Source: an uncultured Candidatus Saccharibacteria bacterium (GTDB lineage Bacteria > Patescibacteriota > Minisyncoccia > UBA6257). From it: a stretch of DNA of 64,000 nucleotides. The translations under genes were made by a program, and so were the position numbers. The stretch is taken from the NCBI GenBank assembly GCA_964479005.1, contig CAYZJA010000002.1, positions 160,001 to 224,000 on the forward strand, written 5' to 3'. Shown piece by piece: positions 11,316 to 63,801 of the stretch; the stretch's first letter is position 1; each line of letters opens with the position of its first letter. The notes under the pieces were generated by a model. It was not told the DNA's origin. It saw nothing but the letters and a program-made list of their open reading frames with translations, and made no database searches.

Positions 11316-12129
11316 TAAAATACTTCTATTTTAATTGCAACGTTCTTGATTTATAATCAGAAAGTTGCAATAATAAGAAGGCTGAATAAAATATGAAAAT
11401 CTTTAAAGAAAACTCTCAGAAACAAAGAAGTTGGTAGGTGTATTACACACGTATTTTAACGCCACCACTTCATGGTGGCTTTTTTAATCCAAGATTTTCT
11501 GACAGAGAGTTCACAAGAGATGACTGAACTTTGAAAACGACTGTCTTTAGTTTGTCTTTTCACTAAAGATGGGAAAGTTGTATTAAGGGCAGATGGTGGA
11601 TGCCTTGACACAGTAAGGCGATGAAGGACGCGGCGTAGCTGCGATAAGCCTCGGGAAGGTGCGTAGTAACCTTTGATCCGGGGATTTCCGAATGGGGCAA
11701 CCCATTCCGATTAATATCGGAATATCCTGATTTTAATAATTAGGAGGCGTACCTGGGGAAGTGAAACATCTCAGTACCCAGAGGAAAAGAAAACAATAAA
11801 ATACATTTTACTACTGTTGTTTAGTACTGAATAGTAGCTAAATGTATTTGTGATTCCTTGAGTAGCGGCGAGTGAAAGAGGAGAAGCCTAAACCAAGCAT
11901 TCAATTTATTGAGTATTTGGGGTTATAAGGTGGATGCGCGGAAGCTTCGGCTTTCAAAATTTAAATCATAATTAATTAAATTATCTGGAAAGATAAACCA
12001 CAGAGGGTGAAAGTCCCGTAGATGAAAATTATTATTGAATTTAGTATCTTTTCTTAATTACCTCGGGGACAGATAACCTTGAGGGAAGGATCCGGAACTA
12101 TACCGGAAAGGCTAAATACTTACTGTGAT

Positions 12130-12175
<46 letters not shown>

Positions 12176-13733
12176 GAGGGGAGTGAAATAGAACCTGAAA
12201 CCATTTTGCCTACAAGCAATCGAAGTCGAGCACTCAGTTTTCTGAGTGCTGGATAACGGTGTGCCTATTGAAGAATGAGCCGACGAGTTTATATCTACTG
12301 CTTAGATTAATTTCGTAAATCGAAAGTAGTCATAGGGAAACCGAGTGTTAATAGCGCGTCATTAATTCTTCTTTTTATCTCGGTTTTCGGGATAAAAAGA
12401 TTAATTAAAATGTAGTGGATATGAGACCCGAAGCCAGGCGAGCTTGCCATGACCAGGATGAACCCCATAGAAATATGGGTGGAGGTCCGAACCCGTGAGC
12501 CGTTCAATACTCTGGGATGAGTTGTGGTAAGGAGTGAAAAGCTAATCGAGCCTGGGAATAGCTGGTTCTCCCCGAAATAGCTTTAGGGCTAGCGGGCTAT
12601 TTATCCTTATGGGGGTAGAGCACTGGATGGTGTGTATAGGGCGAAAGCTCAGCTCACCAATCAAACTCCGAATACCATTAAGGTTATGATAGCCTAGTTA
12701 GACTATGGGGGCGAAGCTCCATGGTCAAAAGGCAACGAATCCAGATCGCAGTTTAAGGTCCCTAAATTTTGGTTAAGTGCTGTCAAAGGTAGTAATTTAC
12801 CATAGACAATTAGTAGGTTGGCTTAGAGGTAGCCATCCTTTAAAGAGTGTGTAACAACTCACTATTCGATCTTGATCTTCGGATCAAGGTGGTAAATTGC
12901 GCCGAAAATGTATCGGGGCTAAAACCAAATACCGAAAACGCGAATTTATCCCAACTAAGGTTGGGGTGAGTGGTAGGGGAGCGTTTCTTAAGCATTGAAG
13001 TTCATAACGTGAGTTTGGATGGAGCTTAAGGAAGTGAGAATGTCGGCATGAGTAACCACAATCCTGATGAGAATTCAGGACTCCGTAAACCTAAGGTTTC
13101 TTTGGCAATGACAATCAGCCAAAGGTTAGGCGGTCCTAAGGCAATGGCGAAAGCTGCAGCCGATGGACAGCCGGTTAATATTCCGGCCCTTCCATTTTTT
13201 TCGATGGGATGACGGAGTGTAGTAGATCGAGCATCTTAGTGGTCTGATGTCTTCGACCGAGAGTGTGTGTCAGGCAAATCCGGCGCATGGTCCCGATTTA
13301 TCGGGACAACTTTCAGGGTAGAAGCGAATTAAGGTTTTTCCTTAATAAGTTGATCGAGCGCACTTCCAAGAAAAATCTCTAAGAATAGGAAAATGGAATC
13401 CGTACCGTAAACCAACACAGGTAGGTGAGGCGAGTAGCCTCAGGAGAACGAGTGATTCCTCGTTAAGGAACTCGGCAAAAAAGCGGGCGTAACTTCGGGA
13501 TAAGCCCTTCCTACCTAAATTTTGCTTGCAAAGTTTAGGCAGGGCGCAGCGAAAGTTTCCCTGGCGACTGTTTACCAAAAACACAGGTCCCTGCGAAACC
13601 GTAAGGTGATGTATAGGGGCTGATGCCTGTCCGATGCCAGAAGGTTAAGAGCGTCGGTCATTTCGATTTATCGGAATGGCTAAGTGCTTGAAGCCCTGGT
13701 CAATGACAGCGATAACTATAATCGTTCTAAGGT

Positions 13734-14449
13734 GGGATACTGCCTTAGTAAAATTCGGCTATATGCTGGAACATCTGGTGTATCCAAGACTACTATGGTA
13801 TAATATGACCATAAAAATATGAGTTATAATATACCAAGTAACAATGTTTTTGGCGCAGACAATCAGCAGGAAAGACTCAGAATTGCTTATTGGATTTTAG
13901 GCTTTACTGATGGTGAAGGATGTTTTTCAATTGCTGTGATAGAGAACAAAACTACTAAATTTGGGAAACAGATTTTTCCTGAATTTGTAATTACACAAGG
14001 AGAAAAAAGTTTAACTGCATTAAAGAAAATTAAAAAATTCTTTGGTTGCGGAAACATTTTTATCAACAAACGATATGATAATCATAATGAGAACTTATAT
14101 CGTTATTGTGTACGTTCTTTACATGACTTAGATAAGAAAATAATTCCGTTTTTTGAAAAATATCAACTCCAAACGTATAAGCAAAATGATTTTTTAATTT
14201 TTAAAAAAGTCATAAAATTCATGATAAAGAAAGAACATTTAACTGAAAAAGGCAGAAAGAAAATTCTTGTCCTCCTCAGTAAAATGAACCATAGAAAAAA
14301 GCGATTTTGAGAATCCTCAGAGACTATATGCCGAACTCCAATATTATATTGGAGAAGATATAGTCCGAACTGCATAGCGATATGCAGAAATAAGCAGAAA
14401 TGTTTATTCGACCTTTAGATTGATTTTCTAGAGGTTAGTAACAAAATTG
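13734..14449 (+). mobile_element. Group I intron in the 23S rRNA at E. coli-equivalent position ~1917.
   Basis: The conserved exon sequence CTAAGGT / AGCGTAATTCCTTGTCGGGTAA is interrupted. The 5' exon ends in U, the intron ends in G, and it contains a LAGLIDADG ORF. Confidence 0.75.
13819..14310 (+). CDS. LAGLIDADG homing endonuclease encoded in intron 1.
   Basis: ILGFTDGEGCFSI matches the LAGLIDADG motif. The 163-aa protein is basic and lies wholly within the 23S intron. Confidence 0.75.
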   Translation: MSYNIPSNNVFGADNQQERLRIAYWILGFTDGEGCFSIAVIENKTTKFGKQIFPEFVITQGEKSLTALKKIKKFFGCGNIFINKRYDNHNENLYRYCVRSLHDLDKKIIPFFEKYQLQTYKQNDFLIFKKVIKFMIKKEHLTEKGRKKILVLLSKMNHRKKRF

Positions 14450-15110
14450 AGCGTAATTCCTTGTCGGGTAATTTCCGACGTGCATGAAAGGTATAACGAC
14501 TGGGGAACTGTCTCAACGAGGAGCTCGGTGAAAATGCGTGTCCAGCGAAGACGCTGGGTACCCGCAGCAAGACGAAAAGACCCTAGAAGCTTTACTACAG
14601 CTTGGTATTGAATTTAGTTTTAATCTGCGTAGCGTAGCGGGGAGACTTTGAAGTTTCGCTTTCGGGCGAGATGGAGTCGCCAATGAAACACCCGTCTTTT
14701 TGAAGCTATGTTCTAATCCCGACGGCAAAAACGTCGTGAGACAGTGCCTGGTGGGTAGTTTTCGTGGGGCGCGATCCTCCTAAAGAGTAACGGAGGAGCC
14801 TACTAAGGTTGGCTATCTGCCAATGGAAACGGCAGAGGTAGTGTAAAGGCAAAAGCCAGCTTTATAGTGAGGGAGACATCCCAAACTATTGCGAAAGCAG
14901 AGCTTAGTGACCCGATACGTCATTGTAGAATGCGTAGAGACGTCGGATAAAAGCTACTCTAGGGATAACAGGCTGGTGGAGCCCGAAAGTTCATATCGAC
15001 GGCTCCGCTCGGCACCTCGATGTCGGCTCATCTTATCCTGGGGCTGAAGAAGGTCCCAAGGGTTTGGCTGTTCGCCAATTAAAAAGATACGCGAGCTGGG
15101 TTCAGACCGT

Positions 15111-15838
15111 CGATTTGGCGGCCTAGAAGAGTAATCTTCTATGGAAAAAGTTGACTCATATAGATGAAACCCTATTACATAAATTGTATTTTAACCTGTC
15201 GTGTGGTAGGATAATATCTAGGGAAGTTTAACTTTTTTAAACGTGAAACATCTTTCAAAGACTCAATGTGCTTATATCGCTGGGTTTTTAGATGGTGACG
15301 GAAGTCTTTATATTAGGATTAAACCTAATAAGGATTATCGGTTTAACTATCAAATAGCCCCCAATATAGTATTTTATCAATCCCAAAAAGGATGGTTATT
15401 TCTTCAGAAAATTAAAAAAATGATTAGCGCTGGTTATATGAGAAAAAGAAATGACGGGATTGCAGAATATATTATTGGTGATGTAGCAACAATGTCTTCT
15501 TTGTTGAAGCAAATATCTTCATTTCTGATATTTAAAAAGAAACAAGCACAATTGTTTCTAAGAATTCTTCAAAAGAAAACAAAGGTAAAAACAAAAGAAG
15601 ATTTTATAGCTTTAGCTATAATGATTGATAAATTGGAAAAATTAAATTATTCCAAAAAAAGGCGCATTACTTCGCAAGTTGTTATCAACACGTTAAAAAA
15701 GTTGTAACCCCTTAGAGACTTGTTCTGGTTTTTACCAGAACGGAATAGAGATTTTTAATCTCTATTAATACGTCAACCTCCTAATAAAATATTAGGATGA
15801 TGGTATAGTCCATACATAAAGTAATTTATGATTATATG
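15111..15838 (+). mobile_element. Group I intron in the 23S rRNA at E. coli-equivalent position ~2593.
   Basis: The conserved exon GAGCTGGGTTCAGACCGT / CGTGAGACAGGTCGGCC is interrupted. A CG ambiguity leaves the boundaries uncertain by ±2 nt. The intron ends in G. Confidence 0.7.
15243..15707 (+). CDS. LAGLIDADG homing endonuclease encoded in intron 2.
   Basis: YIAGFLDGDGSLYI matches the LAGLIDADG motif. 154 aa, lying within the second 23S intron. Confidence 0.75.
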   Translation: MKHLSKTQCAYIAGFLDGDGSLYIRIKPNKDYRFNYQIAPNIVFYQSQKGWLFLQKIKKMISAGYMRKRNDGIAEYIIGDVATMSSLLKQISSFLIFKKKQAQLFLRILQKKTKVKTKEDFIALAIMIDKLEKLNYSKKRRITSQVVINTLKKL

Positions 15839-45528: not shown

Positions 45529-46467
45529 ATGAAAACTCCCCGTTGGATAAAAGAAAATATTTCTTTAAAAGAATACAACACTTTTCGTATTAACGGAAAG
45601 ACGAAATATTTTACAAAAATATCTTCAAAAGATAAATTGATAAGAACTTTACATTGGGCAAAAGAGAATTCTTTGCCTGTTTTTATTTTGGGAAATGGTT
45701 CAAACATTTTATTTTCTGATAAAGAATATCAGGGAATAATAATTAAGATAGAAAATAATAAAATAAAAAAGATAAATAAAAAAACAATTGTTGTCGGAGC
45801 CGGAATGATGTTGATGGAATTATTGCAAAAATTTTTAAATAAAGGGTTTGAAGGTTTAGAATGGGCTAATGGAATTCCAGCAACAGTTGGCGGAGCAGTT
45901 TTTTGTAATGCTGGCGGCTTTGGATATGATTTTGGAAAATTTGTAAAAAAAGTTAGAACTATAGATTTAAAAACATGTAAAGAAAGAATATATTCACAAA
46001 AGGATTGTAAATTTCAATACAGGGGAAGTATCTTTAAGAAGAATCAAGAAATCATCTGGGAAGTTGAAATCTTTATTAAGAAAGGGGATAAAGCAAAAAC
46101 AGGCAATATATTAAGGGAAAAAACAAAGAATTATTGGCAGTATAAGCTTAAGATAGGCTTATTTAGATATCCTTCAGCCGGGAGTATTTTTAAAAATATT
46201 TTTGCCAAAGATGTTCCTTCAAAATATAGAAAAGGGGCGACTATAAAAAAAGGAAAGATTTCTACTGGTTGGTTTATTCAAAAATGCAATCTAAAAGGGA
46301 AAAAATATGGCGGAGCAATGATTTCTGATTTCCATGCTAATGTAATTATTAATATTAAAAACGCAAAAGCAAAAGATGTGTTACATTTGATCAATCTTTG
46401 CAAGAAAAAAGTTTATAAAAAATTTAAGATTGAATTAAAAGAAGAAATTATTGTTATTGACTATTGA
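45529..46467 (+). CDS. murB: UDP-N-acetylenolpyruvoylglucosamine reductase.
   Basis: FAD-binding blocks FILGNGSNILF and GGAVFCNAGGFG, plus the MurB C-terminal domain. Confidence 0.8.
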   Translation: MKTPRWIKENISLKEYNTFRINGKTKYFTKISSKDKLIRTLHWAKENSLPVFILGNGSNILFSDKEYQGIIIKIENNKIKKINKKTIVVGAGMMLMELLQKFLNKGFEGLEWANGIPATVGGAVFCNAGGFGYDFGKFVKKVRTIDLKTCKERIYSQKDCKFQYRGSIFKKNQEIIWEVEIFIKKGDKAKTGNILREKTKNYWQYKLKIGLFRYPSAGSIFKNIFAKDVPSKYRKGATIKKGKISTGWFIQKCNLKGKKYGGAMISDFHANVIINIKNAKAKDVLHLINLCKKKVYKKFKIELKEEIIVIDY

Positions 46468-46683
46468 CATATTCTTTTTTAGAGTTAAAATTATAACAGT
46501 GGACAACTAACAACTAACAAATAACAATAAATAATAATTATAAATCTTTTTATTAATCGTTTTTTTGTTAATTGTTGATTGATTTGGAAATTAAATAATA
46601 AAAACAAGCAGTGTCCATTTATGGATAACCTGTTATTACTTCTTAAGGTTGGTCGTCTGCTTGATTTAAAAAAATAAAAAAAC

Positions 46684-46914
46684 ATGGCCAAAAGAAAAGT
46701 TAAAAAAACCAGGAAAGTTAAAAAAGTTGTAAGAAGAAAAGTTAGAAAGGTTGTTAAGAGAAAAGTTGTAAAGAGAAAAGTTAGAAAGGTTGCAAAGAGA
46801 AGAGTTAAGAAAGTTGCTAAAAAGAGAGTAAAAAAGGTTAAAAAACCCGCTAGAAGAAAGAGAAAAGCCACGAAGAAGGTTAAAAGAACGAAAAGAGCTA
46901 AAAGGAGAAGATAG
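46684..46914 (+). CDS. Highly basic tandem-repeat K/R-rich small protein (76 aa, histone H1/Hc1-like composition).
   Basis: ~65% Lys/Arg, built from repeats of (R/K)KV(R/V)KV(A/V)K encoded by ~24-nt tandem DNA repeats. A strong GC-rich hairpin follows directly. Confidence 0.5.
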   Translation: MAKRKVKKTRKVKKVVRRKVRKVVKRKVVKRKVRKVAKRRVKKVAKKRVKKVKKPARRKRKATKKVKRTKRAKRRR

Positions 46915-46918
46915 TTTT

Positions 46919-46992
46919 CACCCCCACACCATAACGAGCACTAAGCACTTTGCGCTAAATACGAAGTATGTGCTCATTTGGTGTGGGGGTTT
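46919..46992 (+). terminator. Long GC-rich hairpin (12-bp outer stem with an inner stem), putative terminator.
   Basis: acccccacacca ... tggtgtgggggt with an inner gagcac/gtgctc stem, followed by ttt. Confidence 0.5.
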
Positions 46993-47044
46993 GCTTTATA
47001 ACCTCTTTTTAGGTAAGATTTAGGTGGATATTTATTAAATATTT

Positions 47045-47401
47045 ATGAATATTAAAATCGTACCAAAAGATGTTGAATTATTAAACCAACAAAGGGGGAA
47101 TATAGAACAAAAATTAAAAGATTTAGAAAAAATAGGCCAACGTTATGGAGAAAGGTCTTTATTAACAATCACAATAGGTAAAATTATTTCTAACCAAGAA
47201 ACAGGTGAGATTTTCTTTGCTGAGGCTAATTTTGCCATTCCAGGAAAAGATATAATATGTAAAGTGCAGGGAAGTAATATTGAAGAAACCATAGATAGAT
47301 TAAAAGATAAATTAAAAAGTTTAATGATTAAAAGTAAAGAATTAAGAAAAGGTCGTTTCAGAAGATTAGCGCGCGCCTTGAAAGACAAATTGCATTTTTA
47401 A
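47045..47401 (+). CDS. hpf: Ribosome hibernation promoting factor / RaiA family.
   Basis: 118 aa. Its length, basic C-terminus and short-HPF-like sequence pattern fit the family. Confidence 0.6.
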   Translation: MNIKIVPKDVELLNQQRGNIEQKLKDLEKIGQRYGERSLLTITIGKIISNQETGEIFFAEANFAIPGKDIICKVQGSNIEETIDRLKDKLKSLMIKSKELRKGRFRRLARALKDKLHF

Positions 47402-63274: not shown

Positions 63275-63348
63275 CGCGGGGTGGAGAAGTAGTATCTCAC
63301 GAGGCCCATAACCTCGAGACGCTGGTGCAATTCCAGCCCCCGCAACCA
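63275..63348 (+). tRNA. Initiator tRNA-fMet (anticodon CAT), with encoded CCA.
   Basis: Strong similarity to E. coli tRNA-fMet (CGCGGGGTGGAG..CCCCCGCAACCA), a C1:A72 mismatch, and anticodon loop CCCATAA. Confidence 0.8.
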
Positions 63349-63402: not shown

Positions 63403-63672
63403 ATGTTTTATATTTATATTTTGTACAGCGAAAAAGATAAAAAACTTTATACAGGTTTTGCAGGTGATTTACGAAAAAGAATAACAAAGCACAAAAAAGG
63501 ATTTGTGAAAAGCACTAAAGATCGTCGACCATTAAATCTGATTCATTACGAAGCATTTATTAATGAAAGTGATGCTAAGCGAAGAGAAATATTTTTAAAA
63601 AGTGGGTATGGGGAAAAAGAAATTGCTATATTGTTACAAAATTATTTTCAATCAAATTATTGGAATAAATAA
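63403..63672 (+). CDS. GIY-YIG nuclease superfamily small protein (YhbQ/UPF0213-like).
   Basis: MFYIYILYSEKDKKLYTGFAGDLRKRITKH matches the GIY-(x10)-YTG motif. 89 aa. Confidence 0.65.
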   Translation: MFYIYILYSEKDKKLYTGFAGDLRKRITKHKKGFVKSTKDRRPLNLIHYEAFINESDAKRREIFLKSGYGEKEIAILLQNYFQSNYWNK

Positions 63673-63684
63673 TTAAAAATATTT

Positions 63685-63758
63685 GCCAGGGTAGCTCAGT
63701 CGGTTAGAGCATAGCACTCATAAAGCTAAGGTCGTGGGTTCAATTCCCACCCCTGGCA
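63685..63758 (+). tRNA. tRNA with anticodon CAT: elongator Met or Ile2 (lysidine).
   Basis: GCCAGGG..CCCTGGC acceptor stem, anticodon loop CTCATAA, T-loop GGTTCAATTCC. Confidence 0.75.
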
Positions 63759-63801
63759 CACCGTTAAACGGTGTTGAGGCACGTTTGACGTGCCACCCAA
63801 A

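Follow-up and report, generated by a model that had tools for sequence, protein, structure and literature searches.

In a 64,000-nucleotide (nt) stretch of a genome assembled from an uncultured Candidatus Saccharibacteria bacterium (contig CAYZJA010000002.1; the whole stretch is referred to as the window) we found a small gene encoding an extremely lysine- and arginine-rich protein (the polybasic gene), whose neighbours are murB, an HPF/RaiA-like gene (hpf), secA and scpA/B, and directly behind it a GC-rich hairpin. We consider a two-part explanation likely, in which a real polycation gene has received an inserted palindromic mobile element as its neighbour. An earlier note on this DNA had described open reading frame (ORF) and hairpin as one feature. 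The sequence of 76 amino acids (aa) was exactly as quoted there and the estimate of about two-thirds basic residues agreed with a K+R content of 64%. The hairpin itself is no part of the gene but a copy, inserted here, of a palindromic mobile element from a dispersed family. Upstream of the span covered by that note, and missed by it, lie a conserved promoter and a leader hairpin with covariation (Table 1).

Searches with the polybasic ORF yielded zero families at E <= 1 in Pfam, zero families in NCBIfam, and no homologues with HMMER, neither among 5.8 billion proteins nor among 1.84 billion representatives. Since sequence searches were empty, the family was traceable by synteny only, and we fetched 75 genome loci from GTDB through the N-terminus of SecA and added two more (L210 and L211). 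A K/R-rich ORF was encoded at the same murB/X/hpf/secA position in 20 of the GTDB loci and in both added loci, i.e. in 22 loci. Conserved homologues, whose absence the earlier note would have taken as a sign of a non-coding repeat, are hence present as syntenic orthologues. SecA N-terminal identity of the 20 GTDB loci ranged from 97% to ~52%, and the closest SecA relatives were metagenome-assembled genomes (MAGs) labelled Paceibacterota, Minisyncoccia, Saccharibacteria or Nealsonbacteria. Orthologues were between 20 and 90 aa long, with the shortest at 20-26 aa (e.g. MAKKKAKKVAKKAKKGGKKKR). Conserved among them were only charge and composition, a K/R periodicity of ~4 residues (KKxx; KPKA in L012, whose protein reads KAKPKAKPKAKPKAK) and the termini, with all N-termini being MAK, MAT or MTK and all C-termini a K/R run right before the terminator. 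A GC-rich hairpin with a T-run was located 3' of every orthologue, and its sequence differed between clades as is the case with ordinary terminators. Within the 64-kb window the ORF at 46684-46914 was the sole one of its sort. No prior description of the gene was found in the literature, our coverage of which was partial, so that an earlier description is possible.

According to Tandem Repeats Finder the ORF holds overlapping imperfect arrays, the period of which is 24 nt (2.2 and 3.2 copies with 80-87% match), 39 nt (2.2 copies with 89% match) or 15 nt. Repeat units of ~24 nt, as proposed in the earlier note, are thus real but simplify a pattern in which 15- and 39-nt periods overlap. The expansion and contraction of the repeat that had been suspected there was seen among close relatives, in which the protein had 62 aa (L210), 76 aa (window, L005, L211), 77 aa (L050), 84 aa (L006) or 90 aa (L009). 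Relative to the window this amounts to 8 additional aa in L006 and 14 fewer in L210; all indels within this close clade were multiples of 3 and all were located inside the repeat core. Repeat slippage would produce such a length drift. Between the window and L005 the gene differed by two synonymous changes plus an R>K and a V>T exchange.

Upstream of the polybasic ORF, a TTGACA...(GAG)TTAAAAT block was kept in most syntenic loci, at or overlapping the murB stop codon; in L036 no TTGAC was found upstream of the ORF. The leader further encoded a hairpin, ending 20 nt before the ATG in the window, with a GGTCG motif that was present in 21/21 leaders, 31 to 91 nt before the ATG and on the 3' side of a stem-closed loop. 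The loop was between 8 nt (L036) and 61 nt long and can contain extra inner hairpins. The closing stem had different variants between clades, namely CAAGCAG/CTGCTTG (window), CAAACAG/CTGTTTG, CAAATAG/CTATTTG and AAAATAT/ATATTTT. As MAFFT was unable to align the variable loops, we used a spliced alignment of the closing stem, in which 98.6% of cells were paired and compensatory double changes occurred in 4/7 pairs, with the 5' strands picked by hand, which biases the count towards pairing. The covariation score of the closing stem was reached by 0/500 shuffles and collapsed in slid controls. A looser test, uninformative in itself, found a perfect 6-mer complement in 16/21 leaders compared to 17.5% of controls. 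A longest-stem test was uninformative as well, as AT-rich flanks yield long chance stems, and the fold of the whole 5' leader was not significant (z = -1.5). No Rfam family was found for the leader, with a search of 46440-47080 at E <= 10 returning chance miRNA-like matches to the downstream GC-rich hairpin only, and a scan of the whole window at gathering threshold gave no match to the hairpins of the polybasic gene. The leader GGUCG hairpin is probably a protein-binding operator or a 5' stabiliser of the polybasic mRNA. GGTCG was absent from the 23S and 5S rRNA of the window, so that there is no obvious rRNA mimicry by this hairpin.

Some leaders (L010-L013, L012/L016 and L023/L024/L026) contained a second, clade-specific hairpin between the GGUCG hairpin and the ATG, which showed compensatory changes (TTGTGTC/GACACAA, AGCGC/GCGCT, CCAGG/CCTGG) and was absent from the clade of the window. 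L024 and L026 carry GGAGG 5' of the ATG, and the 3' strand of their second hairpin overlaps this Shine-Dalgarno sequence, which suggests translational control in these two loci. A DnaA-box-like sequence, GTTATCCAC, was located directly 5' of the -35 hexamer in L005, L009, L012, L013, L016, L023, L024, L026 and L036 (window version TTATTGAC at 46455-46463), and was kept even where it falls outside the murB coding sequence (L023, L024, L026, L036). Across the window DnaA boxes were unenriched (25 found, 19 expected).

The start of the polybasic ORF in the window is A-rich and lacks a Shine-Dalgarno sequence. A Shine-Dalgarno-like motif was found for 9/51 large window ORFs, and as most window genes are without one, such a start is normal for this gene. 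TATAAT was observed ~10-20 nt from the ATG of several large window ORFs, which suggests that leaderless or short-leader mRNAs are widespread in this genome.

Syntenic conservation, promoter, leader hairpin and private terminator together point to a genuine, separately transcribed gene, and we are confident that the ORF is real. Transcription would begin at the near-consensus promoter at the end of murB, proceed through a long AU-rich leader and end at the gene's own terminator upstream of hpf-secA. The strong promoter and the private terminator suggest that the gene is highly expressed.

Table 1. Features of the polybasic gene and the adjoining palindromic element; coordinates are positions in the window.
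Feature	Coordinates	Strand	Remarks
Promoter-like site TTGACA-16-TAAAAT	46464-46491	+	11/12 consensus positions; overlaps murB stop codon
Leader hairpin	46605-46663	+	Stem CAAGCAG 46605-46611 / CTGCTTG 46657-46663; GGTCG 46651-46655; inner hairpins in loop
Polybasic protein gene	46684-46914	+	76 aa; K+R 49/76 = 64%
Imperfect tandem-repeat core of polybasic gene	46714-46836	+	Periods 15/24/39 nt; copy number differs between strains
Non-autonomous palindromic mobile element copy, 71 nt, ORF-less	46920-46990	+	Arms shared with dispersed family
Native U-tract TTTGCTTTAT of original terminator	46990-46999	+	Directly abuts element

With regard to function, we give an even chance to a nucleic-acid-binding polycation similar to histone H1 tails, Hc2 or protamines, a proposal made by analogy. 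As only charge, periodicity and termini are conserved, binding of a polyanion would be non-specific rather than dependent on a fitted site. The protein would accordingly act by electrostatics, most likely on DNA, with charge neutralisation and compaction as a result, and possibly on RNA. It would probably turn helical on binding. AlphaFold2 drew the protein as a single helix with a predicted local distance difference test score of 90; as this was a single-sequence model and hence weak evidence, we rejected it as evidence for a stable fold, and it suggests at most a helical propensity on binding.

Among known polycations, the chlamydial proteins Hc1/Hc2 (hctA/hctB) are similar in being lysine-rich with a repeat number that varies between strains, as do the 62/76/77/84/90 aa found here; Hc2 length differs between strains by the number of lysine-rich repeat units (PMC2848022). 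In contrast to Hc1/Hc2, the family described here has no Pfam Hc1/HC2 match, is shorter (20-90 aa), is rich in K/R and V instead of K/A, and has no conserved domain, and its DNA binding is putative. A low-complexity KKxx/KPKA periodicity is shared with the C-terminal tail of H1, with AlgP, which has been called histone H1-like (PMC9239181), and with PhaF, a translation activator that binds RNA and whose RNA-binding region is intrinsically disordered (PMC12818456). Unlike these, the polybasic protein is standalone, lacks any globular or partner domain and is not homologous to them in sequence. A linker-histone winged-helix domain was absent according to Pfam, and the whole protein is of low complexity and modelled as one helix. 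The H1/Hc1-like character proposed in the earlier note therefore holds for the polycationic, low-complexity composition, which is like that of an H1 tail or Hc2, and fails for homology to H1, Hc1 or ribosomal families, for which Pfam, NCBIfam and HMMER were empty.

Small polybasic proteins are also known from ribosomes (bS22, bL37, Thx), and the size and charge of the shortest orthologues as well as the ribosome-related neighbour hpf resemble this group. The polybasic protein might then be a ribosome-associated peptide, maybe acting with the hibernation factor encoded next door, and the GGUCG hairpin its autoregulatory operator. This would be in line with the location of hpf immediately downstream in all 22 loci, with shortest orthologues of 20-26 aa, and with a conserved, covarying leader hairpin as is typical for autoregulation by ribosomal proteins. 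We nevertheless regard it as unlikely, as the polybasic gene is transcribed as a unit apart, with a terminator of its own, and its product, with a highly variable length of 20-90 aa and no conserved residues or residue pattern, does not resemble proteins fitted to a pocket of the rRNA. Neither NCBIfam, with zero families, nor Pfam gave a ribosomal family match, and GGTCG is missing from the window's 23S and 5S rRNA.

Some observations speak against a translated nucleic-acid-binding polycation. Its translation and abundance are inferred from the DNA, and its proposed function is based on composition and analogy, without homology to any family. The invariable hpf adjacency and the shortest orthologues of 20-26 aa would also fit a ribosome-bound peptide, and the antisense frames of the gene are open as well.

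The second part of our explanation concerns the hairpin, which begins five bases past the TAG stop codon of the polybasic ORF. Its outer stem consists of 12 perfect bp (ACCCCCACACCA at 46920-46931 and TGGTGTGGGGGT at 46979-46990), with each arm being unique in the 64-kb window, followed inwards by a bulged T and AAC/GTT, by the inner stem GAGCAC/GTGCTC and by an inner hairpin that is degenerate. The element is flanked by TTC on the left and TTT on the right. A stretch of 101 nt folded at -38 kcal/mol compared to -19 +/- 3 for shuffles (z = -6.1; 0/200 shuffles as good), which, in a window of ~31% GC, bears out the strong GC-rich 12-bp-stem hairpin in AT-rich DNA that had been noted before.

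Three states of this locus were seen among relatives. L005 represents an empty site (GATAGTTTT^TAGCAAATTC). In L005, L006, L009 and L050 this position is taken by unrelated simple terminators, and these loci share with the window only the 3' GGGGTTTGCTTTAT, which follows unrelated native terminator hairpins in these four loci and in L211. L211, with an HPF that is 88% identical, is a filled site, where the stop codon is followed by CTTTC, the same element, and TTT-AGCAAATTCATGGTTTCCCCCGTTAGAAATCTATTTCTAACGGGGGTTTGCTTTAT, which is the intact native terminator of L005. In the window the element is present with the native hairpin deleted; the native hairpin is likewise absent from L001-L004 and L210. 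As the window state is exactly the product expected of a deletion between GGGGGTTT repeats, the insertion came first and the loss of the native hairpin second. The element would have entered at TTT^A, past the stop codon and ahead of the native terminator, a state kept in L211, and the native hairpin would then have been lost by deletion between the two direct GGGGGTTT repeats. The element now abuts the native U-tract directly and would serve as terminator hairpin of the polybasic gene. Its stem is followed by TTTGCTTTAT; a terminator consensus scan made no call here, with the loop being > 8 nt. The element presumably terminates the polybasic gene.

Some details fit this history and role less well. 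The left flank in the window is TTC and not TTT, and family copies elsewhere do not in general have a T-run behind them, which counts against a role as terminator. A further copy with the same arms and an 11-nt loop was observed behind the 26-aa polybasic gene of a Minisyncoccia MAG with 64% SecA identity (L018, 3455-3487), with the native terminator hairpin of that gene on one side and the same TTTGCTTT tract on the other. It may be an independent insertion into a like site or an old shared one.

To characterise the family we scanned metagenome contigs for the 16-mer ACCCCCACACCATAAC; all counts for the family are among the matches listed. The arms ACCCCCACACCATAAC...GTTTGGTGTGGGGGT recurred in at least 77 metagenomic copies, including those of a 304-nt class, and at least 67 non-redundant copies had a matching arm GTTTGGTGTGGGGG within 220 nt of ACCCCCACACCATAAC. 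Contigs bearing copies had between 30 and 62% GC. Viral contigs, used as a chance control, had 10 matches to the 16-mer, of which 0/10 showed the second arm. Across the family the outer 12 bp, the bulged T and AAC/GTT were invariant, and the inner stem, which is GAGCAC/GTGCTC in the window, covaried. Copies fell into size classes of 33 nt (with a 3-nt loop), ~69-75 nt (the commonest class), 100-150 nt and 304 nt. One copy (L163) had an interior near-identical to that of the window element at another locus. Identical 3-nt flanks (TCA, TTC, TAA, TTT, TGA, TTG) were found in 48/67 copies, and the next base was A in 63/67, which indicates a TNN(A) duplication. No published description of the element was found in the literature, which we covered in part, and an earlier description is possible.

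Besides single copies, tandem (L158, L166) and nested copies (L107, L081, L160) were observed, as were the related arm variants ACTCCCACACC, ACCTCCACACC and AAACCCCCACACCTTTACAGG. A cargo of ~118-125 nt was found facing either way with respect to the bulged-T arm (L111 as opposed to L140/L173). The element loop may, as these copies suggest, be a landing pad for other small palindromes.

A number of copies are located within protein-coding genes. In 11 cases the removal of the element and one flank copy restored a long ORF, and in all of these (11/11) element plus flank copy had a length divisible by 3, was free of stops and was read in one codon phase. The probability of 11/11 in-frame lengths by chance is ~(1/3)^11. 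The encoded peptide was xPHTKR...RYGVGV in nine copies and PHTIT...FGVGV in two, which were inserted in the other orientation. Host genes included those for LeuRS, PGK, IscS and FolD. Residues flanking the insert were contiguous in solved structures of PGK (3q3v 141|142, 3uwd 139|140) and LeuRS (3ziu 388|390), and also for IscS in comparison to 5kz5, where the flank-encoded ID was duplicated. A profile of the PHTKR...RYGVGV insert gave no match at E <= 10 in a protein database, the query being too short. Two copies considered as out-of-frame in-gene copies (L111 and L142) were rejected, as both lie at gene starts. At ATGA gene junctions, the last G of the element and the duplicated TG form a GTG, and an ORF of 181-425 codons starts there in at least seven copies (L083, L132, L140, L150, L153, L164, L173), with the upstream TGA being kept. 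Insertion at such junctions looks tolerated, by design or by selection.

Element interiors span from 3 nt to an ORF of 85 aa. An ORF just inside the left arm was found at 12/124 sites of the 16-mer, always in one orientation. This loop-filling ORF encodes a GIY-YIG nuclease (Pfam PF01541, E = 1e-16); NCBIfam gave weak partial matches only, including one to a group I intron endonuclease subfamily. Full-length copies bearing this gene would be the presumed autonomous form of the element. The window further encodes a free-standing GIY-YIG protein of 89 aa (63403-63672, +; Pfam E = 1.2e-13) without ACCCCC arms, located between two tRNA-Met genes (63275-63348 and 63685-63759). Over 66 aa it shares 50% identity with the element-borne nuclease, and it might serve the ORF-less copy at 46920 as a partner acting in trans.

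From these findings we tentatively propose, at somewhat less than even confidence, a previously undescribed class of GIY-YIG-linked hairpin mobile elements, in which invariant arms would be recognised or mobilised by an 85-aa nuclease that is borne in the loop and consists of the catalytic domain only. Its ORF-less derivatives in Patescibacteria-type genomes would, as a part of this tentative proposal, do little harm to their hosts, with insertions into essential genes being in frame and stop-free, GTG starts being regenerated at ATGA junctions, and terminators being substituted. Its weak side is that mobilisation by the GIY-YIG protein is inferred from physical linkage only and that the GIY-YIG ORF could itself be a passenger of the loop.

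Comparison with known element types puts this proposal into context. Rickettsia palindromic elements (RPEs) occur in intergenic positions and also, in frame, within unrelated housekeeping ORFs, to which they add a conserved peptide (PMC10969869), and in-frame palindromic insertion into unrelated protein genes is what was seen in the 11/11 in-gene copies. The family differs from RPEs in its Patescibacteria-type hosts, a length of 33-150 nt as opposed to ~150 nt, clear TNN(A) duplications and GIY-YIG-bearing relatives, a distinction made by description and not by sequence. Similarity to miniature transposable elements with inverted repeats (MITEs), such as the terminator-like SPRITE of S. pneumoniae (PMC10969869), consists in terminal inverted repeats, short flank duplications, ORF-less dispersed copies, empty and filled sites and, putatively, an occasional service as terminator. 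In contrast to MITEs the whole element is one long hairpin, and the partner with the same arms encodes a GIY-YIG nuclease and not a recognised transposase. GC-rich palindromes are shared with repetitive extragenic palindromic (REP) sequences and their associated tyrosine transposases (RAYTs), yet REPs are 20-40 nt long, tagged with GTAG or CGTC and linked to a tyrosine (Y1) transposase (PMC3733652, PMC2817692), whereas the element starts with ACCCCC, is 33-305 nt long, is also located inside genes and has a GIY-YIG cargo, and thus does not qualify as a REP. GIY-YIG homing endonuclease genes have the same catalytic domain as the 304-nt relatives. The element-borne protein differs from homing endonucleases in that it has 85 aa only, with no separate DNA-binding domain detected, is not intronic, lies between hairpin arms that are invariant and has derivatives resembling MITEs; the window copy at 46920-46990 is without an ORF and is therefore not a gene of this kind. 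A long GIY-YIG-bearing form is not known from MITEs or RPEs.

An alternative to this tentative class would be that the palindromes are functional RNA or DNA structures recruited by the host, e.g. regulatory or processing hairpins, or that they are mobile without GIY-YIG, with the nuclease ORF as a passenger. Other cargoes are indeed nested in the loop in either orientation, the ORF is present at only 12/124 sites, and the inner stem is maintained by covariation. Flank duplications, the pair of empty and filled sites, nested and tandem copies, and insertions into unrelated essential genes are on the other hand hallmarks of mobility, and in 12/12 copies the GIY-YIG ORF takes up the loop exactly and has one orientation, so that we assign this alternative a low probability.

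Much less probable still is that the polybasic ORF is untranslated, the region being a low-complexity repeat rich in purines, a gene on the antisense strand or an upstream ORF that regulates hpf-secA. The antisense ORF 46491-46871 encodes 126 aa rich in Phe, Leu and Thr, and two antisense frames were without stops in all orthologues purely because the sense strand is purine-rich. As these frames are equally open, openness alone cannot settle the strand, which is settled by promoter, start codon, stop position and terminator orientation. While HMMER detected no homologue and the window ORF has no Shine-Dalgarno sequence, an ATG-GCN-AAR start, a K/R-rich C-terminus and a stop just before the terminator were kept in 22 loci down to ~52% SecA identity. 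Promoter and terminators are oriented on the + strand, some orthologues do have a Shine-Dalgarno sequence, and a terminator separates the polybasic ORF from hpf. Most K/R codons are furthermore one transversion away from a stop, yet no stop occurred in any orthologue. That the hairpin is simply the gene's own Rho-independent terminator with a coincidental likeness elsewhere is hardly credible, since in spite of its GC-rich stem followed by TTTGCTTTAT and of a terminator at this position in every orthologue, the closest relatives carry unrelated hairpins here, L211 has both in tandem, and identical 16- and 15-nt arms are found in dozens of unrelated contexts including the insides of LeuRS, PGK and IscS.

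Elsewhere in the window, the 23S rRNA gene (11573-15141) has 3569 nt compared to a model of 2925 nt and is thus ~640 nt longer; the genome is of Patescibacteria/Candidate Phyla Radiation (CPR) type. An ORF within this gene (13819-14310, +) encodes a LAGLIDADG endonuclease of 163 aa (Pfam E = 1.9e-24), and the insert is probably an rRNA intron with a homing endonuclease. Such introns are common in CPR.

The polybasic gene is a candidate for the major polycation of ultra-small CPR cells, which homology searches have missed, and its length variation at strain level makes it easily followed in metagenomes. Inserts of the palindromic element can be expected to mislead gene calling, protein alignment and terminator prediction in CPR genomes. 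The family behaves like the RPEs, with translated in-frame copies, and has in addition target duplications and a linked nuclease gene. To our knowledge the movement mechanism of RPE-like elements is unresolved, and the present family offers a candidate enzyme together with a defined DNA substrate, both open to direct test.

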